The notes beneath the pieces were generated by a model that was not told the DNA's origin, made no database searches, and was given only the letters and a program-made list of their open reading frames with translations. The position numbers and the translations under genes are program-made. A stretch of DNA of 64,000 nucleotides, from contig CAWDOD010000010.1 in assembly GCA_963803805.1 (NCBI GenBank), positions 160,001-224,000 on the forward strand, read 5' to 3'. Every line of letters starts with the position of its first letter. Position 1 is the first letter of the stretch. This document shows positions 10,519 through 29,104 of this stretch, in pieces. This stretch comes from an uncultured cyanobacterium (GTDB lineage: Bacteria; Cyanobacteriota; Cyanobacteriia; Cyanobacteriales; CAWCAG01).

Positions 10519-10520
10519 AT

Positions 10521-13149
10521 TTAAAACAAGCTTTGTTGCTGAATTAACTTGGCGATTAATGCTGTCCAGCCAGTTTGGTGACTAGCCCCTAAACCTGCCC
10601 CGTTGTCACCATGGAAGTACTCGTAAAAGAGAATGAGGTTGCGCCAATGGGGGTCTTGCTGAAACTTTTCTAAATCCCCATAGAGGGGACGTTGCTGTTT
10701 TTCGTCTCTTAAAAAGATGCGGATCAGTCTTTGGGATATGTCTGAGGCCACTTCCCAGAGGTTTTTGAATTGCCCTGATCCGGTGGGACATTCTACTTTA
10801 AAGTCATCCCCGAAATAGTGATGGAATTTTTGCAAAGATTCAATGAGGAGAAAGGTGAGGGGAAACCAAATCGGGCCACGCCAATTGGAGTTACCGCCAA
10901 ATTGATCTGTAGTGGACTCGGCAGGTTCGTAGTCTACTTGATACTGGCTACCATCCCATTTAAAGATGTAAGGATGTTCCTGATGATAGCGAGAGAGGGA
11001 ACGAATACCATAGGGAGAGAGGAACTCTTTCTCATCAAGCAAGCGGGTTAACAAGCGCCGGAGTTCATCAGGATGGGTTAAAGATAGCAACCGCCTGGCC
11101 CCTTTGCCGGGACAGTCCATACTAGCAATGTTTTTAGCTAAGTCCGGGCGGTGGGATAAAAACCAGTCAATTTGTTCTTTGAACTCTGGGATAATCTCTA
11201 ACAAGTCGGGTTCAAGGGTTTCTACGGCCAATAAGGGGGTTAGTCCTACGATGGAACGCACTTTCAGTAAGCAGCAGCGACCGCTTGGTAAATTTAAAGC
11301 ATCGTAGTAGAAACCATCTTCTTCATCCCAAAGGGGCATTTGCTGGCGACCAACATTGTTGATAGCATCGGCAATATAGATGAAGTGTTCAAAGAATTTG
11401 AGAGCCATATCGCTATAGATTTGATCTTCCCGACTTAGTTCAAGTGCGATCGCCAGCATATTAAGAGAAAATAATCCCATCCAAGCCGTACCATCAGCTT
11501 GTTCTAGTTCTCCTCCTGTGGGTAAGGGTTTGTTGCGATCAAAAACACCAATGTTATCTAGTCCCAGGAATCCCCCGGTAAAAATATTATCCCCGTGGGG
11601 ATCTTTACGATTAATCCACCAAGTAAAGTTGAGTAAGAGACGATGAAACATCCGTTCTAAGAAATGGCGATCGCCTTTACCAACGCGCTTCTTTTCAATT
11701 TTATAAACTCGCCAAGCAGCCCAAGCTTGAACAGGGGGATTAACATCCCCGAAAGCCCATTCATAGGCGGGTAATTGGCCGTTGGGGTGCATATACCATT
11801 GGCGGGTGAGAAGAAGGAGTTGCCTCTTAGCAAAATCGGCATCTATTATAGCCATTGGTAGGCAGTGAAAAGCTAAATCCCAAGCTGCAAACCAAGGATA
11901 TTCCCAGGTATCTGGCATGGAAATTACTTCTTCAGCGTAGAGACTTTGCCAGTCAGAGTTACGACCATCCAGACGGCTATCAGGTGGTTGTAGTTGAGCC
12001 GAATCCCCCTGCAACCAGGTTTTAACATCATAGCAATAATATTGCTTGCACCATAATAACCCGGCGAGGGGCCTGTCGTTGTACGTTGCAAGAGTCGGCA
12101 TCAAGGTTGGGAGTTAAGCTGTGGTAAAATTCATCGGCTTCCCCTTGACGTTGTGAGAAAATGTCTTTGAATTCTTGGTTAAAAGGGTTATCTAGTTGCC
12201 GATCTACAAATCGCAACTCCACAACTTTAGTTTCCCCTGCTGCAATTTCTAAATGATAATGGGCCGCTGCTTTCGTTCCTAGCTGATTAGGATTAACCGC
12301 CTCCTTTTCCCCCTTAATAATATAGTTGTGGAAAGCATCTTTAACATAGGGGGAAGCATTAGCTACACCCCAGAGACGCTGTTGGTTAGTCTCGTTATTG
12401 GTAAATAGTAGGGGGGGTTGTTCTTGACAATATAAGAAGCGATTACCATATTTAGGATTGTAGGCTTTAACTATTCCCTCCGCTAACTTAGTTACCTGGG
12501 CTTTTGGTTTGTCCCCCGTCCACGACCAAGTATTGCGAAACCACAAAGTAGGTATTAAGTCAAGCTTAGCTATTTCTGGGCCTCGGTTAGTAATGCTGAA
12601 GCGAATACAAATATCTTCCGGACTAACTTTGGCATACTCCGCCACCACATCAAAGTAGCGATCGCCAGTAAAGATGCCCGTATCAAGCAACTCAAACTCC
12701 CTAGCTTCTTTGCTCCTGCGCCCATTTTCTGCCACTAGTTGAGTATAGGGAAACTCCTGTTGGGGGTACTTATATAACCAGCGCATATAAGCATGACTAG
12801 GGGTATTATCCAAGTAAAAATAGTATTCCTTAACATCTTCCCCATGATTGCCCTCATTATTAGTTAAACCAAACAAGCGTTCTTTTAAAATGGGGTCTTG
12901 GCCATTCCACAAAGCCAATGCAAAGCAAATTTGACCATGGCGATCGCAGAACCCACCTAAGCCATCTTCACCCCAACGATAAGCCCGCGATCGCGCCTGA
13001 TCATGGGAAAAATAATCCCAAGCTGCACCATCAGCAGAATAATCTTCTCGAACAGTACCCCACTGACGTTCACTTAAGTAGGAACCCCAGCGATTCCAGT
13101 GGGCTTGGAGTTGAGTATTTTCCTGAATTCTTTGCTGTTCAGCGTTCAT
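10521..13149 (-). CDS. GH63 / MGH1-like glucosidase, split by one frameshift near 12070 (probably a sequencing error)
   Basis: Two overlapping ORFs (12028-13149 and 10521-12104) join into one protein of about 875 aa: [58 protein letters not shown]. Confidence 0.88.
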
Positions 13150-13198
13150 GATTTAACGGTTATTTTGAATAAAAAAAAATGATTAAGTGTAAATATTT

Positions 13199-13813
13199 TT
13201 AGGTTCGCCAAAGATAGAGTAAGGAGAATAAAATTACCCAAATACCATCAACAAAGTGCCAAAATAAAGATACACAAGTAACTCCGTAGTGACCGCGACT
13301 ATAGTTACTAGAAACAAAAGAACGAACTAACATCAGCATTTGTAAAAAGATGCCAATAGTAATATGTAAAGCATGAAAACCAGTTAACAGAAAAAAGGTT
13401 GCACCGACCAAACCTGTAGATAGTTTAAAATCAAGTCCCTGCCATTCTTTAAGTGTACCGGCTAAAAAGTACGCTCCCATTACTGAAGTAGTTAGCCACA
13501 ATAGGCGAAATAACCATAAATGATGCTTTTTGAGAGCCTGTTCTGCAAAATAAATAACTAAACTACTAGAAAGAAGAATAATAGTATTAATTATTATCGG
13601 CGTAGATAATTCTGGCCCTAAAACTCCAGGAGGTAGCCATTGAGAAGTAGTTGAGCGCAGTATAATATAGGTCAGTAAAAAACTGACAAAGACCATACTT
13701 TCCGAGAGCAAAAAGATGGTGAAACCAAATAGGACATTACCTTTTCGTTGCTCTTTTTTGCTACTGGGTTCGTTGGGAGGAATACCAGAGGATTGCTCAA
13801 TAGAACTTGTCAT
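13199..13813 (-). CDS. ctaE: Heme-copper oxidase subunit III (ARTO type)
   Basis: Motifs FLLSESMVF, TGFHALH and FWHFVD; lies downstream of ctaD. Confidence 0.92.
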   Translation of the reverse strand: MTSSIEQSSGIPPNEPSSKKEQRKGNVLFGFTIFLLSESMVFVSFLLTYIILRSTTSQWLPPGVLGPELSTPIIINTIILLSSSLVIYFAEQALKKHHLWLFRLLWLTTSVMGAYFLAGTLKEWQGLDFKLSTGLVGATFFLLTGFHALHITIGIFLQMLMLVRSFVSSNYSRGHYGVTCVSLFWHFVDGIWVILFSLLYLWRT

Positions 13814-13833
13814 AATTTAGATTGTTTTCATGG

Positions 13834-13948
13834 TAAGTAGTCGTAGAAAATTATTTGTATATTTACTATTTAGTTATATATCAACTGTTCCCTATTGCCT
13901 ATTCCCTACCCCAACAAAATGTTAAATTAATTATTGCTCAAGTACTTA
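13834..13948. mobile_element. MITE-like short element (TAAGTA...TACTTA ends)
   Basis: Begins taagtagtcgtagaaaatt and ends aattattgctcaagtactta (imperfect terminal inverted repeats); non-coding interior. Confidence 0.5.
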
Positions 13949-13954
13949 TGTGGT

Positions 13955-14057
13955 TAAGCTGATGTGCATTTAAACTATGTATTACTCAACTAGGAAATAA
14001 GCCCTAAAACCCTCCCCCCATCAAACCTAATAAGTAAATTAAATGCCTGACAGCTTA
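13955..14057. mobile_element. MITE-like element, copy 1 (TAAGCTG...GCATTTAA termini)
   Basis: Terminal inverted repeats taagctgatgtgcatttaa and ttaaatgcctgacagctta; a near-identical inverted copy lies at 52133-52261. Confidence 0.8.
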
Positions 14058-15734
14058 CTTACCATGTCTGCCAATTGCCTCTTCATCACTTGTATCAACT
14101 GTAGAATATTGCGGTAGACCATAGCTATAAGGAGCTAAGGTAACTCTAGGAATTTGTTCAAAATTTTCTTTTGGCGGTGGTGAAGTAGTTGTCCATTCTA
14201 ACCCTGTAGCGTGCCAAGGGTTGTTTGCTGCTGACTCGCCGTTGAGCCAGGAAGCAACCATATTGGCGATAAAGGGCAAAGTGGCCATTCCTAATAAAAA
14301 TGCCCCAAGACTAGCAACAATGTTTCCTCCTGCATACGGAGGGTCATAGGAGGAGATGCGGCGTACCATTCCTTGCAGTCCTAAAGGGAACATCATTGGG
14401 AAAAAAGTTAGGTTTGCACTGATGAAAGTTAGCCAGAAGTGAATTTTTCCCCAAGCTTCGTGATACATCCGTCCAGTCATTTTGGGAAACCAAAAATAGA
14501 TGGCGGCGAATATCGCCATGGTGATGGTGTTAAAGACAATGTAGTGAAAATGCCCCACCACGAAGTAAGTATTATTGACGTGCAGATCAAAGGCCAATGA
14601 ACCCAGCATGATGCCAGTGATGCCACCAATCATAAACATAATAATCCCCCCCAGAGCAAAGAGCATCGGTGTATCTAGATGTAGCTTACTTCTCCATACT
14701 GTAGCTGTCCAAGCAAAAACCTTAATTCCCGTCGGCACGGCAACTAACATAGTTGTGAACATAAAGAGGATTCGCATCCAACTAGGAGTACCACTAGCAA
14801 ACATATGATGTACCCAGACTACAGCACTAAATATAGATATACCAAAAGAAGCGATCGCAACTGATTTATAACCAAACAAGGGGTTACGAGTGAAGGCAGG
14901 AAGAATTTCTGAAAACACCCCAAAAGCAGGCAAGACCATCACGTAAACCGCAGGATGGGAGTAAAACCAAAAGAGGTGCTGGTAGAGAACAGGATCTCCC
15001 CCGGTTGCGGGATTGAAAAAGTTTGTACCAAAACAAAGGTCGAAAAATAGCATGATTGCTGCACCAGTTAAAGCGGGTAAACAAAATAGCTGCAATAGCT
15101 GGGCGCTAAGTACTGTCCAGACGAAGATCGGCATTTTAAAAGGAGTCATGCCAGGGGCGCGCATTCTGACAATGGTAGAGACAAAGTTGACTCCTCCCAT
15201 AATTGAAGATACGCCGATCAAAACAACACTCAGTAGCCAAATCGTTTCGCCATTAATGAGTTTACCTGAAGGATTTTGAATACTTACAGGGGGATAAGAC
15301 CACCATCCCGCCTGGGCTGAACCACTAGGCAACAAAAAGCTGGATATTAGCAAAACTCCCGCGACAGGTATAATCCAAAAAGCGATCGCATTCAATTTTG
15401 GAAAGGCCATATCCTTGGCCCCAATCATCAAAGGAATTAAATAGTTAGCTAAGCCTACTTGGGAAGGGATGATCCACAAGAAAATCATCACCGTACCATG
15501 GAGGGTATACAAGCCGTTATAAAGAGTGCGATCAACTAAATCGGATACAGGGGTAATCAATTCCGCCCGCAGGATCATCGACATGATGCCAGCGATGAGA
15601 AAGAAGATAAAAGTCGTGACGAGATACTGAATGCCAATCACTTTATGGTCAGTATTAAAGCTAAAGTAGCGTTTCCAGCTATCTTGAGAAGCTTCAGACT
15701 CGCCAATATTTGTCAGATTTGAATTAACTGTCAT
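14055..15734 (-). CDS. ctaD: Heme-copper oxidase subunit I, type A2 (ARTO)
   Basis: His ligands TLHG, WFYSHPAVY, VWVHHMF and GHFHY; A2-type YS motif; HVNNTYF instead of the Mg-binding HD. ATG at 15734 preferred over the ORF-track start at 15749. Confidence 0.95.
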   Translation of the reverse strand: MTVNSNLTNIGESEASQDSWKRYFSFNTDHKVIGIQYLVTTFIFFLIAGIMSMILRAELITPVSDLVDRTLYNGLYTLHGTVMIFLWIIPSQVGLANYLIPLMIGAKDMAFPKLNAIAFWIIPVAGVLLISSFLLPSGSAQAGWWSYPPVSIQNPSGKLINGETIWLLSVVLIGVSSIMGGVNFVSTIVRMRAPGMTPFKMPIFVWTVLSAQLLQLFCLPALTGAAIMLFFDLCFGTNFFNPATGGDPVLYQHLFWFYSHPAVYVMVLPAFGVFSEILPAFTRNPLFGYKSVAIASFGISIFSAVVWVHHMFASGTPSWMRILFMFTTMLVAVPTGIKVFAWTATVWRSKLHLDTPMLFALGGIIMFMIGGITGIMLGSLAFDLHVNNTYFVVGHFHYIVFNTITMAIFAAIYFWFPKMTGRMYHEAWGKIHFWLTFISANLTFFPMMFPLGLQGMVRRISSYDPPYAGGNIVASLGAFLLGMATLPFIANMVASWLNGESAANNPWHATGLEWTTTSPPPKENFEQIPRVTLAPYSYGLPQYSTVDTSDEEAIGRHGK

Positions 15735-16338
15735 ATTTTGGGTTATCAACTATTGGTTTTGCTTCAGCTTGCTCCAAATTCTCTTGCAAAATATCGAGGA
15801 CAATCTGGGGATCGGTTGCCTGCTGCATAATTTGGGCTTCTTGATCATAGCGATCGCGTATAGTGGGAATATCTGTTCTCAATTTTTCTACTAACTCAAT
15901 TAATTTGGCAATTTTTTGTTCTGTTAACAAATTGATTTGTAAGATCAAATGAGAACGTTGTTCAGCTAGTTTATTTTGACGAGTTTGTTGTACTAATACT
16001 CCTGTAGCAATTAGCAAAGCAGCAGTGTCTACTCCCATATTTTGTAGCTCGAATTTAGGGAAACCAAATGGTAACAGTTGTGGTGCTAGATGGCTGCACA
16101 AACCCCAGCTAGCAAAGAATAATAGCTGTAAATACAAAAATTCTGATTTGCTGAAGAAAGCAGCTATCTTTTCAATCAGGCGCTCATGTAGAGGTAGCTT
16201 ATTTTCCTGTTTGGCTTGAAAGCCAATTATTGTCTCTATATTTTTGACAACTTGTTCCGATAAAGGATACTTCTCTCCGTTAAGATTAAAAGACTTCGCT
16301 GGCAGAGAAGTTAAAGATGGTTGCTCAGGAGAAATCAT
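15724..16338 (-). CDS. DUF1003-like membrane protein
   Basis: NIETI...RLIEKIAAF, two TM helices, VLVQQTRQ...LQINLLTEQKIAKLI. Confidence 0.75.
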   Translation of the reverse strand: MISPEQPSLTSLPAKSFNLNGEKYPLSEQVVKNIETIIGFQAKQENKLPLHERLIEKIAAFFSKSEFLYLQLLFFASWGLCSHLAPQLLPFGFPKFELQNMGVDTAALLIATGVLVQQTRQNKLAEQRSHLILQINLLTEQKIAKLIELVEKLRTDIPTIRDRYDQEAQIMQQATDPQIVLDILQENLEQAEAKPIVDNPKYDS

Positions 16339-16377
16339 ACAGTTAAGATCCTTGTTTTTGGTAAAGAGTATAAGCTT

Positions 16378-17280
16378 TCAAAATTTTCTATTTTCAGAAG
16401 CTACTAAAGGTGAGTATGGTTCAACAGTTTTCCAGTTGCTTTTGATTAGTTGTTGAGGTTTGTGGGCGTGTTCTGTGGCTGCCAAGTTTGGCTGCATCCC
16501 TTTGTGCGCAGCCGACTGCAACCACTGACTGTAGGCTTGGGGGGAATCCACATATACATCTGCTTCCATCAAAGCGAAATACGTCCCGCTAAACTGAGAA
16601 TCGTGAAGCTTATATTTACCTTCAGTTATCGGGGTAAAAGTAAAATCAAGAATATGATCAGGAATAATATCTTGTTTAAAGCGGAATTCGGGAACGTAAA
16701 AACCGTGAATTACATCCTCTGACTCAAAGATAAGATGCACAGGTTTATTTTGTGGTAAGTGCAGTTCAGAGGTTGTGATATTTTCTTGGAGATAGCGAAA
16801 ATTCCACTCCCATTGTTTAGCATTTACTTCAATTTCTTCTACAGAATTAGGAACTGTTTGAGTGACTAAGGGGGTATCTGGATTATTTGCAGCATTTGAG
16901 TCCATTATTGTATTCAACCCTTCAATGTTTAACTTCTGATAAATATGAAAGTTTTGCCAAGCAATCCATAAGACTAAGACCGTAGGTATGGCAGTCCAGA
17001 GAAATTCCAAAGTGTTGTTGCCTCTGGCTGGGTGTCCTTCAGTGTAGTCATTTGGGGCTGCCCGACAGGTGATAATTGAAAAAACCATCATGCCCACAAC
17101 GCCAAAAAAAACAACCGCCCCCAAGGTTACCAAAAAGCTAAACAAATCATCAACGTGCTGGGCTTCTGCGGTGGCTGCGGTTGGCATCCAAGAGTATGCC
17201 TGTTGTCCCAACCAGTAACTAACTATAATACTTGCTGCAACACTAATTAAGATGGCAATTTTTTCTAAGGTGTTATTCAT
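16378..17280 (-). CDS. ctaC: Heme-copper oxidase subunit II lacking CuA cysteines (ARTO)
   Basis: Motifs LEFLWTAIP, AKQWEW and DVIHGFYVP; the CuA motif CxExCGxxH is replaced by DSQFSGTYF. Confidence 0.93.
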   Translation of the reverse strand: MNNTLEKIAILISVAASIIVSYWLGQQAYSWMPTAATAEAQHVDDLFSFLVTLGAVVFFGVVGMMVFSIITCRAAPNDYTEGHPARGNNTLEFLWTAIPTVLVLWIAWQNFHIYQKLNIEGLNTIMDSNAANNPDTPLVTQTVPNSVEEIEVNAKQWEWNFRYLQENITTSELHLPQNKPVHLIFESEDVIHGFYVPEFRFKQDIIPDHILDFTFTPITEGKYKLHDSQFSGTYFALMEADVYVDSPQAYSQWLQSAAHKGMQPNLAATEHAHKPQQLIKSNWKTVEPYSPLVASENRKF

Positions 17281-17316
17281 ATAATACAGTTAGTAGCCTG
17301 AAGAGCTTGAAAATAA

Positions 17317-17922
17317 TTATTTAAGAATCATATTGGGATTTTTGCCCTCTTGCAACAACCCCGCAGCCGTATTGTGAATAGCAAACTCATTCCCCATTTG
17401 CGCTCCTAAAGTACCATGAACAAAGAGAAGGGCAAACATCAACAAGCCAACTAATAAATAACTCCACTGCACTTGTCTTACCTTGTGTTTACGCCAATGG
17501 TAACGCTGATAACCCCGCCACAAAGTTAAACCGGCGATCGCAGCCAACAACAAAACTCCGCCAATCCCATGCCAAAGAATGGTTGTACCTGCCCCCAAAC
17601 CCCAGATACTTTTTTTAGTAACAGAAGGTTGAGCTAGCATAATCTCAAAAAAACCGGCTGCTACAGTAAAAAAGGTAATCACAGCAGCAGCGACTAAATT
17701 ATACCAGCCTAAATCATAAAAACCGGTGCGAGTTGCCCTTAAACCTAACAACTTAAGAATGGGCTTTTCTAGAGGAAATAGGGTTCCTGCCCAATCAAAA
17801 ATGACGGCAATAATAAAGAGTCCCAGGGTAAAGTGAACCAGTAGGGGATGAATAGGAAACTCATAGGGCAAACCGTTTGCACCTATATTTAATCCTAATT
17901 GCTTAATTAACTGTTCGTTCAC
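17317..17922 (-). CDS. DUF2231-like membrane protein
   Basis: IHPLLVHF motif, four TM helices, conserved His (WHGIG); in the ARTO operon. Confidence 0.8.
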   Translation of the reverse strand: MNEQLIKQLGLNIGANGLPYEFPIHPLLVHFTLGLFIIAVIFDWAGTLFPLEKPILKLLGLRATRTGFYDLGWYNLVAAAVITFFTVAAGFFEIMLAQPSVTKKSIWGLGAGTTILWHGIGGVLLLAAIAGLTLWRGYQRYHWRKHKVRQVQWSYLLVGLLMFALLFVHGTLGAQMGNEFAIHNTAAGLLQEGKNPNMILK

Positions 17923-18413
17923 TATAAAATTCCTTCTTGGGCAGCTTGTACCACAGGTTCAATATGCAGCCCGTAAACCCAAACCAAACGAGTACCAAGG
18001 TAAACCTGAAAAGTTACCAAAAAAACTAAAATTGTGGCTACTCCTAAATAAGCAGGAGGAATTTTTTTAGCATGACGAATCCGAATAACAAACCGCCAAG
18101 CAGTGACCGCCACAATAATACCTGCTAATGACCAACCGATTATGGTATGTAAATTTAATACGGGTTTTACTGCCTCATAAGGTTGAGCTAAACCTGCTTC
18201 AAACTGACCCACAATAATCGCTAGAAATATCGATACCGAAGCGACAAACAGATTCCAAAAACTTACCTCAAACATCTTGATATTATGAGTTAAATAGCCT
18301 ACTACATCGCAAAAGAAAGAGAAAAAAACCATGGCGATGACAAAGTGAACAATAATAGGATGAAGAGGATCAGGATAGGGTAAATTGCTACTGTTTAAAG
18401 ACAAATTAAACAT
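17922..18413 (-). CDS. DUF2231-like membrane protein
   Basis: LHPIIVHF, LHTIIG and LGTRLVWVYG motifs; first gene of the ARTO operon. Confidence 0.8.
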   Translation of the reverse strand: MFNLSLNSSNLPYPDPLHPIIVHFVIAMVFFSFFCDVVGYLTHNIKMFEVSFWNLFVASVSIFLAIIVGQFEAGLAQPYEAVKPVLNLHTIIGWSLAGIIVAVTAWRFVIRIRHAKKIPPAYLGVATILVFLVTFQVYLGTRLVWVYGLHIEPVVQAAQEGIL

Positions 18414-18655
18414 AGTTTATATGGCTAAAAACAAGCCAGAGGGAGAATCATTTTTATTTTCTCATGCTTTATTAATCTATATCAAGAATGAATACATAGT
18501 CCACTTAAATTTAGATAAGAAGACCGCCAAATCTTTACCTGCTGTCCCCCTCAATCGCTTCTATCACAGGGAAGATAAATAGTTTCATGGGATCAATAAC
18601 GATCACATATGTAGACAAAAACTCTAGAATTAAAAAGTAAATATACTTCCCATAA

Positions 18656-20083
18656 ATGAATAACTCAACCGCTCCCACTATTATTGTCGGCGGAGGCTTT
18701 GTTGGACTTTTTACTGCTTTACATTTAAGCCATCGTCATTACGGTGATCCCGTTATCCTCATTGATTCTCAAGAACGTTTTGTTTTTAAACCCTTACTCT
18801 ATGAATACTTAACAGGGGAGATGCAAGACGAACAGGTTTTACCCCGCTACGAAGAACTATTAGAAGGTAGTGAGGTGACTTTTGTACAGGCTCAGGTAAA
18901 GAGTATTGATTTAGAGCAACATCAAGTAGAATTAGCTTCGGGTTTACATTACAACTATCGTTATCTGGTGTTAGGAGTAGGGAGTACCCAAGGCTATTTT
19001 GGCACGGAGGGAGCCAAAGAAAACGCTTTTCCCTTTCGGACTCAAGAAGATGCAATCAGCTTAGAACGACACCTCAGAGATTGTTTGCAGCAAGCTAGCC
19101 ACACCGAAGAGCCGCAAGTACGTCGCTCCTTACTAACTATAGCAGTAGTTGGGGCAGGGCCTTCAGGGGTGGAGATGGCAGCTACCCTGGCTGACTTATT
19201 ACCCAGTTGGTATGACAAGTTAGGCGGCAATATTCAAGATATTCGCATTGTTGTAGTTAATCACTCTCAAGAAATTTTATCCGGTGATGTCAACTCTCAT
19301 CTACAAGAAACAGCCCTTGAAGCTTTGAAAAGTCGTACTGTACCTGTTGAATTAATGCTAGGGGTAAAAGTTACCGGTGTAGATTCAGGCTGTTTGCAGT
19401 ATCAACACAAGGATAAAGAGGAAGCAGAAACCTTATTTACCCAAACTACAATTTGGACGGCTGGTACGGCAACTAACCCTTTAATTGAATTTTTAGAGGG
19501 GATCAAACCAGAAAATAAAGATAAGCATGGTTTACCTTTGGTAACTTCTGCCTTGCAGTTACCTGACTTTCCCGAAGTATTTGCAGCAGGAGACTGTGGG
19601 GTAGTAAAGACACATCCTCTACCCCCTGTAGCCCAAATTGCCTATCAACAGGGTGCGGGTATTGCCGATAATTTGATTGCCCTGTCTCAGGATAAAGAGC
19701 TTCATGCAGTTGAAGTAACCATGAAGGGAACCCTAATGAAATTAGGCATTAATAACGGGGTTGCTAATCTGTTCAATAAAATTCAGGTAACAGGAAAAAC
19801 TGGAGATTTAATTCGCAACGGGACTTATTTAGAACTGTTGCCAACTCCTGTTCACAACTTCAAAGCTACTACCGATTGGCTAATAGACGAAATCTTTGCT
19901 CCTCACCAGCCACCAGAATCGATTACAACTCCGACGAGAAAATCTCAACTCAATCGAATTGCTGTCTGGGTTAGCGGTACAATCGCTGCGATCGCCTTAA
20001 TTGCTGGTTCGATAGTAGTATGGCGCACAACTCAACCTTCCCCTCCCCAACAACCTACCCAAGAACAAGATGTGGGTGAATAA
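18656..20083 (+). CDS. Type II NAD(P)H dehydrogenase-like FAD oxidoreductase with a C-terminal TM helix
   Basis: Motifs VGGGFVG, FKPLLYE, VGAGPSGVE, WTAG, FAAGD and AQIAYQQG; hydrophobic C-terminal helix. Confidence 0.85.
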   Translation: MNNSTAPTIIVGGGFVGLFTALHLSHRHYGDPVILIDSQERFVFKPLLYEYLTGEMQDEQVLPRYEELLEGSEVTFVQAQVKSIDLEQHQVELASGLHYNYRYLVLGVGSTQGYFGTEGAKENAFPFRTQEDAISLERHLRDCLQQASHTEEPQVRRSLLTIAVVGAGPSGVEMAATLADLLPSWYDKLGGNIQDIRIVVVNHSQEILSGDVNSHLQETALEALKSRTVPVELMLGVKVTGVDSGCLQYQHKDKEEAETLFTQTTIWTAGTATNPLIEFLEGIKPENKDKHGLPLVTSALQLPDFPEVFAAGDCGVVKTHPLPPVAQIAYQQGAGIADNLIALSQDKELHAVEVTMKGTLMKLGINNGVANLFNKIQVTGKTGDLIRNGTYLELLPTPVHNFKATTDWLIDEIFAPHQPPESITTPTRKSQLNRIAVWVSGTIAAIALIAGSIVVWRTTQPSPPQQPTQEQDVGE

Positions 20084-20163
20084 GATCCAGTCCGTTTAAA
20101 TACTGATGATTTATTTTAGGAGCTAGGGAAGTAGAGAGTTTTTGTAATCATAGCTTGTTCTTT

Positions 20164-21613
20164 CTATTTCATTTTACCTCGCAACTCCATTGTCCAAACC
20201 ACAGCACTAACAACTACTGCCCCACAAAGAATCAGTGTCGCAACATGAAAAGCACCTTGCAGCCCTTGCACTAGAGCTTCAGGGGGAGCATTGGTAACAT
20301 CGATTTTTCCTGCCCCTTTAATACTAGCGATCGCAAAGGTTGAAAACAAAGCTCCAATTAAAGGCACACCAGTGGTTTGCCCTAAAGTACGTGATAAAGA
20401 TAATAAACCAGAAGCAATACCTAATCTTTCTCGCGGTACTCCCCCCATGATAGCACTGTTGTTAGGGGATTGAAACATACCTAATCCCAAGCCAAAAGGA
20501 GCAACTCGCAGGATGTAACCTAAGTCGGTTAACTGAGTATTGAAAGTACTTATTAACCCACAGCCAATTACCATCAAAATCAGACCCATTAAACTAATTA
20601 ATCGGGGGCCAAAACGAATCCGATAAGCGGCCGGATATTGGTGCAACTATACCACCCAAGATTGGTGCTACAGCCAGAAGTAAGCCCACTTGTTGGGTAG
20701 AATACTGTAATACTAATTCCAGGAAAAAAGGTAAGACAAAAATCACCCCAGCAATAACCACAAAAACCAAAACTCCAGTCAACAAACCCAGGCTAAATTG
20801 CAAGTTGCGAAAAACTGCTAAATCTAACATAGGTTGTTTGAGGCGTGCTTGTAAAAAGACAAAAGCTATTACACAAATGGCAGTAATTGCTAGCAGAGTT
20901 AAAGTTATAGGACTGTTAAATCCTTGTTTTTGCCCCTCTGTCATGCCAATAGCAAAGCAGGTAAGAGTGACTACTGCTAGCAAAGCCCCCAGAAAATCAA
21001 AACGCTGTCCAGCGCTGCTACTACTAGAAGAAGGGACAAAACGAAAAACAATAAAGCTAGCCAAAATACCAATGGGTACATTGACTAAAAACAGACTACG
21101 CCAACCTGACAAACCGATTAGTAAGCCCCCTACAGTAGGGCCTAGGGATACACCTAAAGAAACAACCGCCCCAATAATTCCTAAAGCTTGGCCTCGTTCC
21201 GATGCTGGGAAAACTTCGGTAATAATTGCTGCACCAAGGGCAGAGATAAACACAGCACCCATACCTTGCAAAGCTCGAAAAGCAATGAGAAAATATTCAG
21301 AAGAGGAAAGCCCACACAATAAGGAACTGATGGTGAAAATAGTCAACCCACCTAAGTAAAGTTTTTTCTTGCCATACATATCTCCCAACCGTGCTGCACC
21401 GAGAACAAAAGCAGTCACAACCAGTAAATAACTCAGGACGACTAATTGAATAGTTGCAAAGTTAGTCTGGAAAGCCTTAACTAAAGTGGGTAATGCGATA
21501 TTAACAATACTGCTGTCAATGGTGAACATAAGCACTCCCAAACCAACGCCCAGCATTGCCCACCATTTTTGGTTAGGAGGAGTCGCATTAGTAGTTGCAC
21601 GAGTATTTCTCAT
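20164..21613 (-). CDS. MFS transporter (DHA2/EmrB-QacA type), split by a frameshift near 20615
   Basis: IDSSIVNIALP, ARLGDMYGKK, FRALQG, GPTVGG; the second part continues RFGPR...FQSPNNSAIMG. Confidence 0.88.
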
Positions 21614-21698
21614 TGAGTTTCGGTTATTTGGTTATTAGTTATAAAATTCTCTTTTCTAACCTAGCTAATTCCGTGGTAGGAAAGAAACATCATATAAG

Positions 21699-21941
21699 CT
21701 ATGCAGTGAGAAAAAAGAGAATCAATACTAAACTAAGACTCGTGGCAAAAAGCAAAGCATACTCTAACTTGCGACTGAGTACACCTACAATAATAATTAA
21801 GCCAATCACAAGCAAGAAAACGCCAGCATAAATTAGATGTTCGGCTTTGTAATTCATTAAAGGATCTTTTTGAGTTGGTTGTTCTGCAATCAGCGAATTG
21901 AGTTCTAATTTTCTGTTCATGAAAAAGCTTGCTTCTCTCAT
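21699..21941 (-). CDS. Small two-helix membrane protein (start uncertain)
   Basis: ORF abutting the GMC gene, with two hydrophobic segments. Confidence 0.55.
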   Translation of the reverse strand: MREASFFMNRKLELNSLIAEQPTQKDPLMNYKAEHLIYAGVFLLVIGLIIIVGVLSRKLEYALLFATSLSLVLILFFLTA

Positions 21942-23518
21942 TTTCCTCTATTTAAACGCTCTTTTAAATGCTCTGCTATCCTGATAGCATTGGCAATAAT
22001 CGTCAAAGTAGGATTTACTCCAGAATTAGAAGGAAAGAAACTACCATCAACGACATAGAGATTATCTACGTCGTGGGTGCTACAGTTAAGGTCTAAAACT
22101 GAAGTTTTGGGTTCTTCCCCAAAGGGACAAGTGCCGCACTGATGAGCCACAGCCGATAGGTGCATTTCATTACGAGGATAGATGCCAAAGGGAAGAATGT
22201 GGTGTGCTGTTTTGTCAACTTGTTTTAATACTTCACTCCAACGATGAATTAGTCTATCTCTGGCTTCGATGTTGTTAGGAGTGTAGTGAAGCTCTAAAGT
22301 ATCACCGTGGGCTTTAACCCGATTGTTAGGGTTTGGTAAATCTTCGGTTTGCAGCCACCAACCAGTTGCATGGCGGGACAAAGCCTCTAACCCTGCCCCT
22401 GGTATCAATTTAACCAAAGGAGCTAGCAATGGTGGTGCTTCTGCTGGCATCATGTCGGCTTTAACGTTACCGGTATTCTGCACCATGCCCATGGGATAGG
22501 GGAAATCGCTTTCTCCCCAATAAAAATCATTAAAAGCAATAGTTTTTTGATAAACTGCGGGGTTAGGTTCTTCACTAAAAGCAACCAAGGCAGTTGCTAG
22601 GTGTTTCATCAAATTACGTCCCACCAAATCGGAACTATTTGCCAATCCGTTGGGATGTCTATCATTTGCAGAACGTAATAGCAAAGCTGCCGAATTGATT
22701 GCACCGCAGGAAACAACAACCACATCTCCCTTAAATCTTTGGCTGTAACCGTTAACTTCTGCCCTGACTTCGGTGATTTCTCGACCAGATTCGCTAGTAT
22801 AGAGTCGCTCCACTTTTGTTCCTGTTAACAGAGTAACGTTAGGATATTCTAAAGCAGGACGAATCCCATTGACTTCCCCATCAGCTTTAGCTTGAACTAA
22901 ACAGGGATAACCATCACAGGTATCGCAGCGAATACAATTACTGAGAAACGAATTGACTTCGTTTAGTTTGATTCCCAAGGGGAGGTGAAAGGGATTGTAA
23001 CCCAAACTTTGCAGGCGATCGCTAATCTCCTGCATCCTTGGTTCATGGCTAACTGGTGGATGGTAATAATCCTCAAACCTCTTAGGTTCAGTTGGATCTT
23101 CACTCCTTTTGCCGTGTACGTTATAAAGTTTTTCTGCCTGGGTATAGTAAGGTTCAAAGTCGCGATATTTAAGGGGCCATGCGGGAGATATCCCCCCTTT
23201 ATGCTGCACTTGTTCAAAGTCTCTTTCTCTCAAACGTAATAAGGCTGCACCGTACACTTTGGTGTTGCCACCGACAAAATAGCAGGTTTGAGGATGAAAG
23301 GTTTTACCAGTTTTGTCGTACCATTGTTCATTGGTAAAATAACGCTGGTTTTGATAAACTTCTTTGGCATTCCAATTATCCTTTTCTCGCGGTAGAAACT
23401 CGCCTCGTTCGAGAATCAGGATTTGTTTACCCGTTGGTGCTAATTGACGGGCTAAAGTACCGCCTCCTGCCCCTGTACCAATAATAATTAGATCGTAGTG
23501 TTGGTTATTAACGCTCAT
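21938..23518 (-). CDS. GMC-family FAD oxidoreductase
   Basis: IIGTGAGG, VGGNTKVYGA, Cys cluster CIRCDTCDGYPC, VGRNLMKH, AHQCGT, NPTLTIIANA. Confidence 0.92.
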   Translation of the reverse strand: MSVNNQHYDLIIIGTGAGGGTLARQLAPTGKQILILERGEFLPREKDNWNAKEVYQNQRYFTNEQWYDKTGKTFHPQTCYFVGGNTKVYGAALLRLRERDFEQVQHKGGISPAWPLKYRDFEPYYTQAEKLYNVHGKRSEDPTEPKRFEDYYHPPVSHEPRMQEISDRLQSLGYNPFHLPLGIKLNEVNSFLSNCIRCDTCDGYPCLVQAKADGEVNGIRPALEYPNVTLLTGTKVERLYTSESGREITEVRAEVNGYSQRFKGDVVVVSCGAINSAALLLRSANDRHPNGLANSSDLVGRNLMKHLATALVAFSEEPNPAVYQKTIAFNDFYWGESDFPYPMGMVQNTGNVKADMMPAEAPPLLAPLVKLIPGAGLEALSRHATGWWLQTEDLPNPNNRVKAHGDTLELHYTPNNIEARDRLIHRWSEVLKQVDKTAHHILPFGIYPRNEMHLSAVAHQCGTCPFGEEPKTSVLDLNCSTHDVDNLYVVDGSFFPSNSGVNPTLTIIANAIRIAEHLKERLNRGK

Positions 23519-23540
23519 GTTTGGTATTTATTGAATTAGT

Positions 23541-23644
23541 TATAGCGTTTCTCAAGTTTATGAGGTACATTTACCCGTAGCCTAAACGCTTCCGGAACCT
23601 AAAACCAAAGTTTTTGCACCTCACCAGTACAAGAATTGCCATAT
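23541..23644. mobile_element. MITE-like element (TATAGC...TGAGGTACA family)
   Basis: Left end tatagcgtttctcaagtttatgaggtaca; right end tgcacctcaccagtacaagaattgccata(ta) is an imperfect inverted counterpart. Confidence 0.6.
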
Positions 23645-23646
23645 AT

Positions 23647-24414
23647 CTACTGTTCCTGATAGTTCCACAGCAAACCCCCATCAACGTAAAAAGTTGAACC
23701 TGTGATATATTTAGCTTCATCGGAAGCCAAGAAAGCTACAAGCCCAGATACATCTTTTGGTTCTCCCAAACGTCCTAAAGGGATGTTTTTAGTAACTTTT
23801 TGTAGTAGTTCGGGATTGTTGAGTAAGTCGTGATTAATCGGAGTTGCGATCGCGCCGGGAGCAACATTATTAATCGTAATACCCATAGAACCCAACTCTA
23901 CTGCCAGATTGCGAGTGATCATCTTCACACCACCTTTGCTAGCACAGTAAGAAGTAAAGTGAGGAAAAGGTAGTTCTTCGTGTACGGAACTAATATTGAT
24001 GATTTTGCCTTGATTATTTGTGGCTTTAAAATGCTTAACTACAGCTTGGGTAGCAAAAAAGACGGCTTTAAGATTAACATTTAATACCAAGTCGTAATCT
24101 GCTTCAGTTACATCCCAAAAGTCAGCACGTTTTTCTAGCCCAGCATTATTAACTAAAATATCTACTTTGCCAAAATGATTAATGCTTTGTTGAACTAAAT
24201 TGTTAATCTGTTCTACTTTGCTTAAGTCTGCCTGAACTATATAACCTTGAGAACCAGCTTGTTCAATTTTTGCTTTAGTTTTTTCCGCTTCATCAGGGTG
24301 AGTGTGATAATCAACTACAATTTTTGCTCCTTCTTGGGCTAAGCGTTGACAAATACTCTGTCCCAGCCCCCCGCTACCACCAGTTACAATTGCAACTTTT
24401 TCTGCTAATTTCAT
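23647..24414 (-). CDS. gdh: Glucose 1-dehydrogenase-like SDR
   Basis: TGGSGGLG, NNAG, IINISSVHE, catalytic YCASK, PGAIATPIN, and ITGSTFYVDGG typical of Gdh-type SDRs. Confidence 0.8.
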   Translation of the reverse strand: MKLAEKVAIVTGGSGGLGQSICQRLAQEGAKIVVDYHTHPDEAEKTKAKIEQAGSQGYIVQADLSKVEQINNLVQQSINHFGKVDILVNNAGLEKRADFWDVTEADYDLVLNVNLKAVFFATQAVVKHFKATNNQGKIINISSVHEELPFPHFTSYCASKGGVKMITRNLAVELGSMGITINNVAPGAIATPINHDLLNNPELLQKVTKNIPLGRLGEPKDVSGLVAFLASDEAKYITGSTFYVDGGLLWNYQEQ

Positions 24415-24455
24415 TGTTTAAGCTCGTTTAAATTAATAGAGATTTCTATCCTTAA

Positions 24456-25025
24456 TTAAAAGGAAAGATTGGGAGAAATTATGGCATCAAGAGAATATAA
24501 TCCTGGTCCAAAGATGGTAATTACAACCATGATCAAAATATAAACAAAGGCTTTTTCATAACTCGGTTCTTCAGCTTTCCCTTTTGGTCCTTCATACATT
24601 CCTGGAAGATTCAAATAAGGATCACGGGCGATAAAAGGTTCCCCTCCTAAAACTTCTAACACTAAGGCAAATGCCATTGAACCTAAAATACCAATACTAG
24701 CTAAGGGAGTAAGAAAACCAGCAATCAAACAAAAACCGCCAACAAACATGGTTGTAGCACCAATAAAACAGAGAAATATTGGTATGTTATTAAGTGAGTC
24801 AGACCATTGTTTTAGGTGGGTTAATTTAGGGTAGCTGTGAAGGATAAAGATAATGCCAATGCAGACGCGAAAGATTAACAAAGTCCAGCTTTTTAGTTCT
24901 CCAGGAAAACTACTACTGGGATAAATCCAAGCTAGAGAAGTCGTCGTTGCTGATAGGGCAGGAACTTTAAATAAGATGCCGCTAGTTAAAAGAAAAGCGA
25001 CTACAGCGTAAATAAATTTAATCAT
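24456..25025 (-). CDS. DoxX-family membrane protein
   Basis: LIFRVCIG...HSYPKL, GFLTPLAS, GPGLYSLD. Confidence 0.85.
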   Translation of the reverse strand: MIKFIYAVVAFLLTSGILFKVPALSATTTSLAWIYPSSSFPGELKSWTLLIFRVCIGIIFILHSYPKLTHLKQWSDSLNNIPIFLCFIGATTMFVGGFCLIAGFLTPLASIGILGSMAFALVLEVLGGEPFIARDPYLNLPGMYEGPKGKAEEPSYEKAFVYILIMVVITIFGPGLYSLDAIISPNLSF

Positions 25026-25036
25026 TTTTTTAATCG

Positions 25037-25945
25037 TTAAGGTTGTTGTACACCCCTGGTATTAAGATCGATTGCATATAAAGAAGTTTTAGCGGTAATA
25101 AACAAGCGATCGCGATTTTTGCCGCCGAAAGTAAGATTAGTACATACTTCCGGCACAAGAATTTTTCCCAGTCCCTTACCATCAGGAGCATATACCTGTA
25201 TACTGTCAGCAGAACTGGTGAAGATGTTGCCATGTACATCGACACGCAAACCATCGGGTTCACCAGGCTCAACCTTGGTAAAGACTTTCCCGTCTTCAAC
25301 GTAGCGATTCTCTCTCACTTCGTAGACGCGGATGTAATGATGTTGCTGGGGATGCTCAAAAGCTGAAGTATCAGAAACGTATAAAAGAGTTTCATCAGGG
25401 CTGAAAGCAAGCCCGTTCGGTCGTTCCATCTCCTTAATAACTGCATCTATTTCCCCGGTTGTGGGGTCGAAACGATAGACAAAATCTCCCGCTTGTTCCT
25501 GTTCACCTCCGTATCCCTGATCTTCCTGGGTAAGACCAAAAACAGGGTCAGTAAACCAGATTGTGCCATCGCTTTTAACGACCAAATCATTGGGACTATT
25601 CAAACGCTTACCCTGATAGCGATCTACCAAAATTCGCCATTGCTCATCCTCTTCCCGTCGAATGATTGCTCTTTGCCCTGATGAACAGGAAACAAGACGA
25701 CCTTGTAAATCACGATAATTGCCACTTTGATAATGGGATGGTTGACGAATAACTTGATTACCATCAGCAGGACTCCAACGCAACAAGCGGTTGTCGTGAG
25801 CATCACTCCAGATTACACTATCATCCTCATAAAAATAAACTGGCCCTTCTCCATGAACTGCACCACTTGTAAGTTTTTTTAGGGTGGCATTTGGGGGCAA
25901 CAAAGCTTTGGCGCGATCGTCATAAATTTCAATAGCTTCAGGCAT
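25037..25945 (-). CDS. SMP-30/gluconolactonase family protein
   Basis: EGPVY, LNSPND, WFTDP, PNGLAFSPDE, PDGLRVD, TNLTFGG. Confidence 0.92.
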   Translation of the reverse strand: MPEAIEIYDDRAKALLPPNATLKKLTSGAVHGEGPVYFYEDDSVIWSDAHDNRLLRWSPADGNQVIRQPSHYQSGNYRDLQGRLVSCSSGQRAIIRREEDEQWRILVDRYQGKRLNSPNDLVVKSDGTIWFTDPVFGLTQEDQGYGGEQEQAGDFVYRFDPTTGEIDAVIKEMERPNGLAFSPDETLLYVSDTSAFEHPQQHHYIRVYEVRENRYVEDGKVFTKVEPGEPDGLRVDVHGNIFTSSADSIQVYAPDGKGLGKILVPEVCTNLTFGGKNRDRLFITAKTSLYAIDLNTRGVQQP

Positions 25946-26000
25946 GACAAGATTGGTTGATAAGCTAATAACTTTCAGAAGATTACCTTAATAATTTGCT

Positions 26001-26447
26001 TTAGGCAAAGTCCCCAGGTTGTGCTGCTAGCCATTGCTTATCCTTTAACTGCACCACCATCAACACTGCTGGCTCATTACCTACTGTACCTGATAGATGT
26101 CCTTGATGTCCTTGACTGTTTGCTTTGGTGTTTTGGTCACCACCAAAAGAAACTTCACCGGGACCCATCTCTACACGAGTACCATCCATGGTTTCCACAA
26201 ACCATCGTCCCGATAAAGGTACAATCCACTGGGGCTGGGGATTTTCATGCCACTCACCAACCCAGCCCACTGGCTGCACCGTAAATAAAACTTCAGCATT
26301 GCTACTAAGCAAGCGATTATTCCATTGGGGATCTGCATCCCCTCCCATACTTTCTTTAGCAAAGTCTGTTAACTCACAGCGAGTCTGGTGGCTAATACCC
26401 TCTTCATCAGTCCAGACGTGCCAGTATTCTACTTTTGGTTTACTCAT
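26001..26447 (-). CDS. Cupin-domain protein
   Basis: WHENPQPQW...LSGRWFVET...GED/GGD...GH cupin pattern. Confidence 0.75.
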   Translation of the reverse strand: MSKPKVEYWHVWTDEEGISHQTRCELTDFAKESMGGDADPQWNNRLLSSNAEVLFTVQPVGWVGEWHENPQPQWIVPLSGRWFVETMDGTRVEMGPGEVSFGGDQNTKANSQGHQGHLSGTVGNEPAVLMVVQLKDKQWLAAQPGDFA

Positions 26448-26490
26448 CTCAAATTCCTTATTATTAGTTTAAAGCTTATAGAGTGGCAGA

Positions 26491-27443
26491 TTACAAAGCA
26501 ATTAGCATCATTGCGTGTCCGTTAGGATCTTTAACCAAACAACCTTGACTATAAGGATAGGAATTGGGAAACTGAACGATGTAGGGCGAGATGATTTCAA
26601 CTCCACTTTCTCGCAGTACCTTAACGGCTTGCACAATATTATTAACAACAAGCTGTACTTGCATCGTGGCAATGTCGTAACTTTGCCAATTATCGGGGAA
26701 CGGACGACCTGTTTCAGGGACGATGTAATCGAGTAATTCTATTCCCAAACCTCCTTGTTTGGGTCGCGTTGCCGTTACTCGCACTTTAGCTTCTGGTAAG
26801 CCATCAAGATGGGCCTGAATTTCTCCAGAGTTAAGATTGCTTTGTTCAATCTCCATCCCCAACAAGTCCCGATAAAAGGTTAGACTCTGTTCTGTATTGG
26901 CTACTGCGATCGCACTATGATCAATTCCTAAAAATAATTCTTCTGTGTTTTGTTGCCACTTAACTTTGCTTTGTTCTGGTGGAAACCAAATTATTTCTAA
27001 ATCATGACCGTCTGGAATCTTTGAATTTAAAAGCACGTATACCTGAAGGCAGGGTTTGTAGGCCCCTAGAAATTGGCTTGATAGAAAAAGATTTTAGATG
27101 ATCGTAAGCGCAATCTATATCCCTAACAACAATGGCCAGATGTTGAAACCAAAGGTCATTACTTTGGGAATCTTCAGGAATCGGTTTTCCTTTGGTATGG
27201 GAATACTCGATTAATTCAACAAGTTCATCCCCAAGCTGCAAGGTAACAATGCGAATCTCAGTCGGCTTTATTCCTTCAAGTTTGCTATAAAAATCTCTTT
27301 TAGCAACAGAGATCAGAAACTAGTTTAAACGAAAGTGCTTGAGTGTAAAAATTTAGGGATTGGTCAATATTGGTTACTGTTGAACTAATCCCTCGAATTT
27401 TTTCTACTTGGATGCCTTTGCAAGAGTTGAATGTAGTTTCCAT
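26491..27443 (-). CDS. VOC/glyoxalase-family protein, split by two frameshifts (near 27310 and 27015)
   Basis: Three ORF pieces give V.NIDQSLNFY..LSF, ELIEY, QHLAIVV, F(K)DPDGH.LE, IDHSAIAV, FYRDLLG, KDPNGH. Confidence 0.8.
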
Positions 27444-27577
27444 ATTCTTTTCTCTAGCTTGGATACTTTCTAGTTTACTTTGAGGATATGACAAACAAGT
27501 TTTGATGTTGTGTCAATATTGTGTACTCGTATTAAAAGATTAAAGTGACTAGGAGTAAAATTGATCATTGTTCATGA

Positions 27578-29062: not shown

Positions 29063-29104
29063 ATTTCACGCTGTAGCTTTTGTCCTTAGTCATTTTTGAG
29101 AATT

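Follow-up and report, generated by a model that had tools for sequence, protein, structure and literature searches.

Can sugar-oxidising enzymes and a respiratory oxidase encoded beside them serve a common pathway? The question is raised by a 17 kb region (positions 10521-27443) of a window of 64,000 nucleotides, the whole stretch of DNA analysed here, from an uncultured cyanobacterium (GenBank assembly GCA_963803805.1, contig CAWDOD010000010.1). The region joins a sugar half, with a GH63 alpha-glucosidase-like gene, a glucose 1-dehydrogenase-like SDR (Gdh), a gluconolactonase and a GMC flavoprotein, to a respiratory half, with a type-2 NAD(P)H dehydrogenase (NDH-2), a pair of DUF2231 proteins and the CuA-less oxidase ARTO (ctaCDE). 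The initial annotation read it as a self-contained route from glucoside through glucose, gluconate and quinone to O2. We find that linkage of the halves is conserved, loosely, and is not a one-off, and that the region is a loose, freely rearranged regulon rather than a self-contained operon. On balance, it is somewhat probable that this is a night or dark catabolic regulon, in which alpha-glucan would be converted through glucose to gluconate while NADPH electrons would pass through NDH-2 and quinone to ARTO.

Linkage of the two halves in other genomes

Among 150 genomes of the order, 44 supplied the 48 ctaC loci surveyed; the 60 NDH-2 loci were taken from 90 matches across 400 genomes at class level and often lie on short contigs. 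The DUF2231 pair precedes ctaC in 45 of the 48 ctaC loci, and 22 have a GMC gene on the strand of ctaE, no more than 4.5 kb away from it. The NDH-2 loci contain a GMC in 15 cases, an SDR in 16 (some weak), the DUF2231 pair in 11, GH63 in 10 and ctaD in 9. Near-complete clusters with changed gene order occur at G123, L264, L257 and L173; that of G123 comprises VOC, NDH-2, Gdh-like SDR, GH63, two DUF2231 genes, ctaCDE, GMC, lactonase and DoxX, and that of L173 has all genes on one strand. These clusters and the ARTO clade counts below bear out the linkage that the initial annotation had proposed to look for by gene-neighbourhood search; together with the dusk co-induction described below, they run counter to the first outcome it named as refuting, halves unlinked elsewhere or not co-regulated.

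Across the 150 genomes, all 14 with a window-type Gdh also have GH63 (14/14), and in 14 of 22 no more than 15 kb separates GH63 from a Gdh-like SDR. This NDH-2 accompanies ARTO in 18 of 24 genomes against 7.0 expected, with seven linked; because kin are not independent, Fisher values for these co-occurrences overstate the association.

Clustering of 4078 open reading frames from the fetched loci, with a Pfam scan of 53 of the 118 representative clusters, revealed further recurrent neighbours: an aquaporin (28 loci), a second lactonase type (17), glycogen debranching enzyme (14), GH15 glucoamylase (11), Zn-glucose dehydrogenase (11), gnd (7) and zwf, tal-pgi, glk and tkt (3-4). The sugar half also occurs on cyanobacterial plasmids, with no oxidase and with GH15 replacing GH63, and the cores GMC-VOC-GH63 and SDR-GMC are present in Acidobacteria, Planctomycetes and Verrucomicrobia. 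Two verrucomicrobial SDR-GMC pairs (L032, L052) lie beside a distant ctaCDE set, and the pairing of sugar genes and oxidase may reach beyond cyanobacteria. At L257:22-3561, a malto-oligosyltrehalose synthase (TreY-like) gene is directly upstream of GH63.

Two ARTO clades keep different partners

The tree of ARTO subunit I contains two clades (FastTree 0.99 and 0.98). Of the 34 loci in clade I, to which the window ARTO belongs, 23 have this NDH-2 close by (16 of 27 once loci picked through NDH-2 are dropped) and 16 have GH63, GMC, Gdh, lactonase, VOC, DoxX or cupin genes. Clade II loci have a GMC in 36 of 56, NDH-2 in one of 56 and other sugar genes in none (0/56).

Clade II includes the operon DUF2231-DUF2231-ctaC-ctaD-ctaE-GMC (L122-L158, L256-L298, L351). 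In a quick, midpoint-rooted tree of 47 of 133 rows, the GMCs that immediately follow ctaE make up a single clade (SH-aLRT 100) nested in the cyanobacterial clade holding the window GMC, which itself falls outside this operon clade. Four basal members of the 36 operon-type GMCs keep the Cys loop and 32 have deleted it entirely. Of the 36 rows without a complete Cys motif, 16 have Asn in place of the catalytic His and 29 have Ser in place of the catalytic Asn. Judged from these losses, the clade-II operon GMC is possibly a pseudo-enzyme partner of ARTO. Four GMCs near the window's (L113, L160, L236, L257) carry Phe at the third Cys position; their three remaining Cys are as expected for a 3Fe-4S site. 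The T. variabilis plasmid A locus (L351:15001-22049) holds the ARTO operon, GMC, two convergent cydAB operons, hypB and feoAB.

A tight operon ccoN-ccoO-DUF2231-DUF2231-NDH-2 (L184:5595-10691 and L183) has a C-family oxidase in ARTO's place. Since the DUF2231 pair and NDH-2 are kept with cbb3, a role for the pair in CuB/heme assembly, or as a tie to NDH-2, would fit better than an ARTO-specific docking site. The GMC clade pattern and the cbb3 swap together suggest a module in which the DUF2231 pair, accompanied by NDH-2 or by GMC, may be what stays constant. At L185, L188 and L126, NDH-2 and the DUF2231 pair stand together with ctaC or ctaDE elsewhere.

Co-induction at dusk in S. elongatus

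The S. elongatus genes Synpcc7942_1571-1575 (MIP, GMC, Gdh, glucosidase and debranching enzyme) are described as co-located and night-induced, with a proposed glycogen-to-gluconate cascade (PMC11889915). Genome G181 carries GMC-SDR-GH63 in that order (64%, 64% and 59-63% identity to the window genes) and, at a separate locus, ccoN-ccoO-DUF2231-DUF2231-NDH-2 with gene lengths of 1437, 927 and 537 bp as in the table of PMC11889915; orthology with S. elongatus rests on this match of gene order and length to the table.

In that table, log2 changes at the onset of subjective night are +3.47 for GMC, +3.07 for the debranching enzyme, +2.73 for gdh and +2.58 for the glucosidase, and, in the respiratory half, +2.99 for NDH-2, +2.95 and +2.90 for the DUF2231 pair, +2.71 for ccoO and +2.42 for ccoN; coxB rises by only +1.17. 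Genes of both halves all fall within the first 67 of 366 rows, and all reverse at hour 8. Across the 24 S. elongatus samples of the same source, NDH-2 expression follows that of GMC (r = 0.87) and of the glucosidase (r = 0.73), values that stand without a genome-wide background. The initial annotation had proposed co-induction in the dark as a check; likely orthologues of both halves rise 2.4-3.5 log2 together at subjective dusk, with cbb3 standing in for ARTO, within a broad dusk regulon.

Gene content and integrity of the region

Inspection of open reading frames and profiles recovered every gene listed by the initial annotation, in the order and on the strands given, from VOC (27443-26491) through GH63 (13149-10521) (Table 1). 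VOC, cupin, SMP-30/gluconolactonase, DoxX, Gdh-like SDR, GMC, an 80-aa membrane gene and MFS form one minus-strand run; DUF2231, DUF2231, ctaC, DUF1003, ctaD, ctaE and GH63 form a second, with NDH-2 on the plus strand.

Table 1. Genes of the region in window coordinates.
Gene or product	Position	Strand	Features
GH63 alpha-glucosidase-like	10521..13149	-	about 875 aa; PF22422 and PF03200 above cut-off; likely assembly insertion near 12068
ctaE, ARTO subunit III	13199..13813	-	PF00510
ctaD, ARTO subunit I	14055..15749	-	A2-type (YSHPAVY); metal-ligand His and cross-link Tyr kept
DUF1003 membrane protein	15724..16338	-	PF06210; between ctaC and ctaD
ctaC, ARTO subunit II	16378..17280	-	CuA ligands lost
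DUF2231 protein b	17317..17922	-	PF09990; four transmembrane helices
DUF2231 protein a	17922..18413	-	four-helix bundle
Type-2 NAD(P)H dehydrogenase, likely NdbC-like	18656..20083	+	C-terminal membrane helix
DHA2 (EmrB-type) MFS exporter	20164..21613	-	TIGR00711, 238.1 bits vs cut-off 230.2; likely insertion near 20617
80-aa two-helix membrane protein	21699..21941	-	no Pfam match
GMC flavoprotein, Fe-S dehydrogenase type	21938..23518	-	Cys195/198/201/206, His459, Asn502
Glucose 1-dehydrogenase-like SDR	23647..24414	-	closest solved: Bacillus GlcDH, E 1e-66
DoxX membrane protein	24456..25025	-	PF07681
SMP-30/gluconolactonase	25037..25945	-	PF08450; PDB gluconolactonases, E 3e-63 and 4e-53
Cupin	26001..26447	-	PF07883, 24.7 bits, under cut-off 27.2
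Two-domain VOC/glyoxalase-family	26491..27443	-	likely assembly insertions near 27016 and 27309

Four frameshifts, one in GH63, one in MFS and two in VOC, were absent from the earlier reading. Contigs from short-read run X1 have exactly one base fewer at each of positions 12068, 20617, 27016 and 27309, and those from run X2 show the same one-base absence at 20617 and 27016; the reads come from one study at depth 3-8, and X1, whose contigs differ from the region by about a dozen substitutions, may be the source sample. As the short-read contigs lack the four extra bases, the frameshifts are most likely assembly errors and GH63, MFS and VOC most likely intact; pseudogene decay of these genes was rejected. 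Split genes of the same sort appeared in seven of 100 genome loci tested. The sole other heme-copper oxidase found in this genome, G000 (contig C6, about 59.8-63.2 kb; L318), has a canonical ctaD that is also frameshift-split, likely through the same assembly fault.

The region lies on contig C10 of a cyanobacterial genome of 5.3 Mb (97% complete), with a GC content of 0.415 vs about 0.40 for the genome. In G001, of the same genus, ARTO, this NDH-2, this Gdh and GH63 are all unmatched at the thresholds used, and the matches to the two genes flanking the block lie about 297 kb apart. The block has been gained or lost as a whole relative to G001. Neither flanking repeats nor an insertion sequence was found within 9800-28200, and a promoter and terminator scan stayed at chance level (43 vs 39.2; 16 vs 17.3).

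The sugar half

The GH63 protein combines the N-terminal beta domain of its family with an (alpha/alpha)6 barrel carrying the catalytic acids. Its profile matches alpha-glucosidase I, and a C-terminal Glu motif aligns with glucosidase I. An intact orthologue in G123 (75-78% identity) gave no match in a single-sequence PDB search; its model (pLDDT 72) matched glucosidase I (E 2.5e-14) and YgjK (E 2.5e-11) with both domains covered. MGH is absent among the sequence and fold matches listed for this protein, which at about 875 aa has two domains. The initial annotation's suggestion of a compatible-solute (MGH) enzyme is thus weakened, the protein folding as a two-domain alpha-glucosidase I/YgjK with alpha-glucan enzymes adjoining.

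The SDR passes NF005559 (257.5 vs cut-off 215) and falls below NF006493 (278.5 vs 420), and it keeps the catalytic Ser-Tyr-Lys and the glucose-site motifs. His occupies the cofactor position held by Arg in most members of its subfamily, and Gdh carries an NADP(H)-type fingerprint, as does NDH-2. SDR glucose dehydrogenases (GDHs) of Spirulina and Lyngbya are reported to oxidise glucose with a preference for NADP+ (bioRxiv 10.64898/2026.04.01.715859); neither accession was among 10 related proteins looked up for the window SDR subfamily. With the Bacillus enzymes as its closest relatives and glucose oxidation published for cyanobacterial SDR GDHs, the SDR is probably a glucose dehydrogenase, as initially annotated.

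The GMC possesses the FAD motif, the catalytic His and Asn and the Cys-rich loop of Fe-S sugar dehydrogenases. Its closest solved relatives are the Burkholderia FAD-GDH catalytic subunit (E 6e-39) and fructose dehydrogenase (E 3e-28). It shares the GMC fold, Cys-rich loop and His/Asn pair with the Burkholderia FAD-GDH and a Gluconobacter-type fructose dehydrogenase (PDB 6a2u, 7w2j), but is distant from them and has another four-Cys spacing. No GMC row, the window's included, has a Tat signal or motif, and no operon with a cytochrome c and a Tat-bearing small subunit was found in the window or among the recurrent neighbours scanned. A second, stand-alone GMC (C2:1379 kb, L316) is common to G000 and G001.

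The MFS gene rarely belongs to related clusters, and a role as sugar importer was rejected because its best match is the DHA2 efflux family TIGR00711. The genome has no full-length match to PF00083 (sugar porter), which favours an internal sugar source. A gluconokinase-like FGGY gene lies at G000:C2:401.5 kb (L315:6469-8049; 590.7 vs cut-off 648.55 bits), and a GntK-type kinase had no match in the genome. At C2:849.7 kb (L317), a second lactonase stands two to three genes from an open reading frame that is glucokinase-like, judged from its sequence.

The respiratory half

With the DUF2231 pair ahead of ctaC, followed by subunits II, I and III, the genes have the ARTO operon form. CtaD residues H106, H284, Y288, H333, H334, H419, H421, D135 and K362 (E. 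coli numbering) are invariant; these are the six metal-ligand His, the cross-link Tyr and proton-channel residues. Relative to caa3 subunit II, both Cys and one His are replaced in ctaC, with the same replacement across related ctaC. DUF1003 was not seen between ctaC and ctaD in the ARTO loci fetched, and it adjoins sugar genes on a Nostoc plasmid.

In DUF2231 protein b, His25 and His118 are invariant across 46 rows; in protein a, His18, His23 and His89 are near-invariant across the wider family. The model of protein a is a confident four-helix bundle (pLDDT 94.9), for which Foldseek returned no match at E <= 0.001. Its best VIA Z (13.7) is to designed bundles and is uninformative on heme vs copper.

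NDH-2 has two Rossmann folds and matches solved NDH-2 over its full length (E 6e-38). Its fingerprint reads Asn202-His203 where the solved enzymes have Glu-Ala, and Asn or Gln followed by Arg or His is found in 74 of 81 orthologues. Such a neutral-plus-basic pair in place of Glu points to NADPH, the NADH enzymes having Glu. The 80-aa two-helix protein recurs beside NDH-2 and ARTO at 13 loci.

Relation to described systems

Synpcc7942_1571-1575 resembles the window in its co-located GMC, Gdh and glucosidase genes, but is without oxidase or NDH-2 and, in the passages of PMC11889915 concerned, unconnected to a terminal oxidase. Beyond that cluster, the window has lactonase, VOC, cupin, DoxX and the respiratory half, but neither MIP nor the debranching enzyme. 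The respiratory half resembles the Synechocystis NdbC-quinone-ARTO chain in pairing NDH-2 with a CuA-less oxidase; NdbC and ARTO are reported as plasma-membrane proteins in Synechocystis PCC 6803 (PMC6878006, PMC6553663). No sugar source is assigned to that chain in the portions of these sources describing it, whereas in the window the respiratory genes directly adjoin those for sugar oxidation. In the S. elongatus table the DUF2231 pair bears the labels sll1485/sll1486, and ndbC is sll1484, the next number (PMC11889915, PMC6553663); orthology of the window NDH-2 with NdbC (Sll1484) rests on adjacency to the pair so labelled.

A GDH/gluconate kinase shunt clears glycogen-derived glucose in methanotrophs (PMC8062543), and Lyngbya gluconate kinase is reported to be active (bioRxiv 10.64898/2026.04.01.715859). 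The likeness lies in an SDR glucose dehydrogenase turning glycogen-derived free glucose into gluconate; in the window genome the kinase is outside the cluster, with the FGGY candidate on C2. The type-1 ARTO of Anabaena PCC 7120 (alr2729-alr2730-coxB3-coxA3-coxC3; PMC6616624) likewise has two genes followed by subunits II, I and III, and no CuA. Its Cox3 is assigned a role in heterocyst O2 protection; the window has an inserted DUF1003 and belongs to an NDH-2-linked clade.

The ARTO operon form, the sugar cluster in one strain and, as a proposal, the NdbC-ARTO chain are already known from these sources. Full-text searches, with most subscription papers outside their coverage, found no paper joining the halves, in agreement with the initial annotation's view of an undescribed unit; they likewise found neither the two ARTO clades with differing partners nor an ARTO-GMC operon with a decaying active site. 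For DUF2231, the full-text search returned a database list only.

Interpretation and alternatives

The genes, motifs, recurrent linkage and two ARTO clades with their neighbours are observed directly. In the proposed night catabolic regulon, GH63 would free glucose from alpha-glucan breakdown products, and the SDR, using NADP+, and probably the Fe-S GMC would oxidise glucose to gluconolactone, which the lactonase would convert to gluconate. NDH-2 would pass NADPH electrons through quinone to the CuA-less oxidase and O2, likely at the plasma membrane, and gluconate would either be recovered through the gluconokinase-like gene, which lies at another site in the genome, or be exported. Matching NADP(H) fingerprints would support this scheme: NDH-2 has Asn/Gln followed by Arg/His, and the tested cyanobacterial GDHs prefer NADP+. 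The glucose activity of SDR GDHs, the plasma-membrane location of NdbC and ARTO and the dusk co-induction of likely orthologues come from the published work on other strains cited above. For this organism we infer all substrates, the coupling through NADP(H), the step at quinone and a sharing of electrons by the halves rather than only of a regulator.

Several observations weigh against this reading. Of the 24 genomes with both GH63 and ARTO, no more than two place them within 15 kb of each other; for window-type Gdh and ARTO the figure is none of 10, from a search that missed the 39-41% subfamily of Gdh adjoining ARTO in L112-L115. Within 10 kb, L231, the closest ARTO relative, keeps no members of the set other than NDH-2, the small gene and ARTO; G521 and G522 hold VOC-cupin-lactonase-DoxX-Gdh as one block with the remainder elsewhere; and plasmid copies of the sugar half lie among general-stress genes. 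VOC, cupin, DoxX, DUF1003 and MFS have no place in the scheme. CtaD has Ile, Met, Leu and Gly at the columns of Arg71, Asp75, His98 and Gln101, which form the quinol site of bo3-type oxidase subunit I. Of the initial description of ARTO as CuA-less and probably quinol-oxidising, the loss of CuA stands; with the bo3 quinol-site residues absent, quinol oxidation is something we still infer. In published data, Synechocystis has NdbC and ARTO without a GDH/gluconate kinase bypass (bioRxiv 10.64898/2026.04.01.715859), its NdbC and ARTO drop in glucose-fed cultures (PMC9175036), and its NDH-2s are interpreted as regulatory (PMC6553663). Finally, zwf, gnd, opcA, glgP and kdp share the dusk induction (PMC11889915), and the like behaviour of zwf, gnd, opcA and glgP points to a shared dusk regulon, not direct coupling. 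The initial glucoside-to-O2 reading is thus upheld in its linkage, dusk co-induction and likeness to GDH, is weak as to an MGH route and is not supported as self-contained: close relatives split or scatter its parts, the MFS is of an exporter type, the cluster has no sugar importer, the gluconokinase-like gene lies on another contig, and GH63 is seldom linked to ARTO.

An unlikely, though not negligible, alternative is a general stress or dormancy island. Small units (NDH-2 with the DUF2231 pair and oxidase; VOC-cupin-lactonase-DoxX-Gdh; GH63) would come together under one regulator and be passed on jointly, without electron flow dedicated to linking them. Gene order is never identical twice and close relatives split the blocks, neighbours include BON, CsbD, MscS, fasciclin and 'general stress protein' genes, the whole set is absent from G001, and NdbC and cbb3 are also up under oxidative stress (PMC13683863). 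Against such an island stand the grouping of sugar genes around one ARTO clade and, apart from GMC, not the other, the matching cofactor fingerprints, and the consistently alpha-glucan or glucose character of the recurrent carbohydrate neighbours.

The frequent GMC-ARTO pairing raises the possibility, which we consider improbable, that GMC is a dedicated ARTO electron source, through its Fe-S cluster to quinone or the DUF2231 pair; in clade I, NDH-2 would offer another way in. The same-strand GMC near ctaE and near 36 of 56 clade-II oxidases, the single clade of ctaE-linked GMCs, the T. variabilis plasmid A GMC placed between ctaE and the two cydAB operons, and closest solved relatives that feed respiratory chains all agree with it. 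Loss of the Cys loop in 32 of 36 operon-type GMCs, with eroded catalytic residues, speaks against GMC simply supplying electrons; neither a cytochrome c nor a gamma subunit is recurrent among the neighbours scanned, and the window GMC, outside the operon clade, is 3.5 kb from ARTO. Least plausible, and very doubtful in our estimation, is a keto-sugar pathway independent of gluconate, in which GMC would oxidise a glycoside or aldonate at C2/C3 and VOC, cupin, lactonase and SDR would process or detoxify the product. This would account for the otherwise unexplained VOC and cupin, for the cores of GMC-VOC-GH63 in the three other phyla without ARTO, and for fructose dehydrogenase and pyranose oxidase among the GMC's structural relatives, but the best SDR matches are glucose 1-dehydrogenases, and a Zn-glucose dehydrogenase often replaces a missing SDR (11 loci).

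More broadly, and only tentatively, the catabolic regulon could belong to a modular night respiratory circuit apart from the thylakoid chain, oxidising unphosphorylated glucose derived from alpha-glucan and feeding NADPH through an NdbC-type NDH-2. The DUF2231 pair would tie this chain to an exchangeable oxidase (ARTO mostly, cbb3 CcoNO in one genus), and the second-clade GMC would be a fixed non-catalytic partner that has lost the Fe-S loop and, in many cases, the catalytic residues. ARTO has neither CuA nor a bo3-type quinol site, and its plasma-membrane chain has been called poorly characterised (PMC6878006); recurrence of the cluster in shuffled order suggests a job for this poorly understood oxidase. 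The GDH/gluconate bypass is described as ruled out in Synechocystis and shown in Lyngbya (bioRxiv 2026). For both, the cluster names candidate donors and partners: Gdh, GMC, NDH-2 and the DUF2231 pair.

Neighbouring features

A repeated element lies between ctaD and ctaE (about 13830-14060), where X1 depth reaches 55 vs about 6, and G001 holds several partial copies of it. A sucrose-phosphate phosphatase gene (29096-29857; TIGR01485 above cut-off) is located 1.6 kb past the end of the cluster, beyond a DUF697 GTPase.

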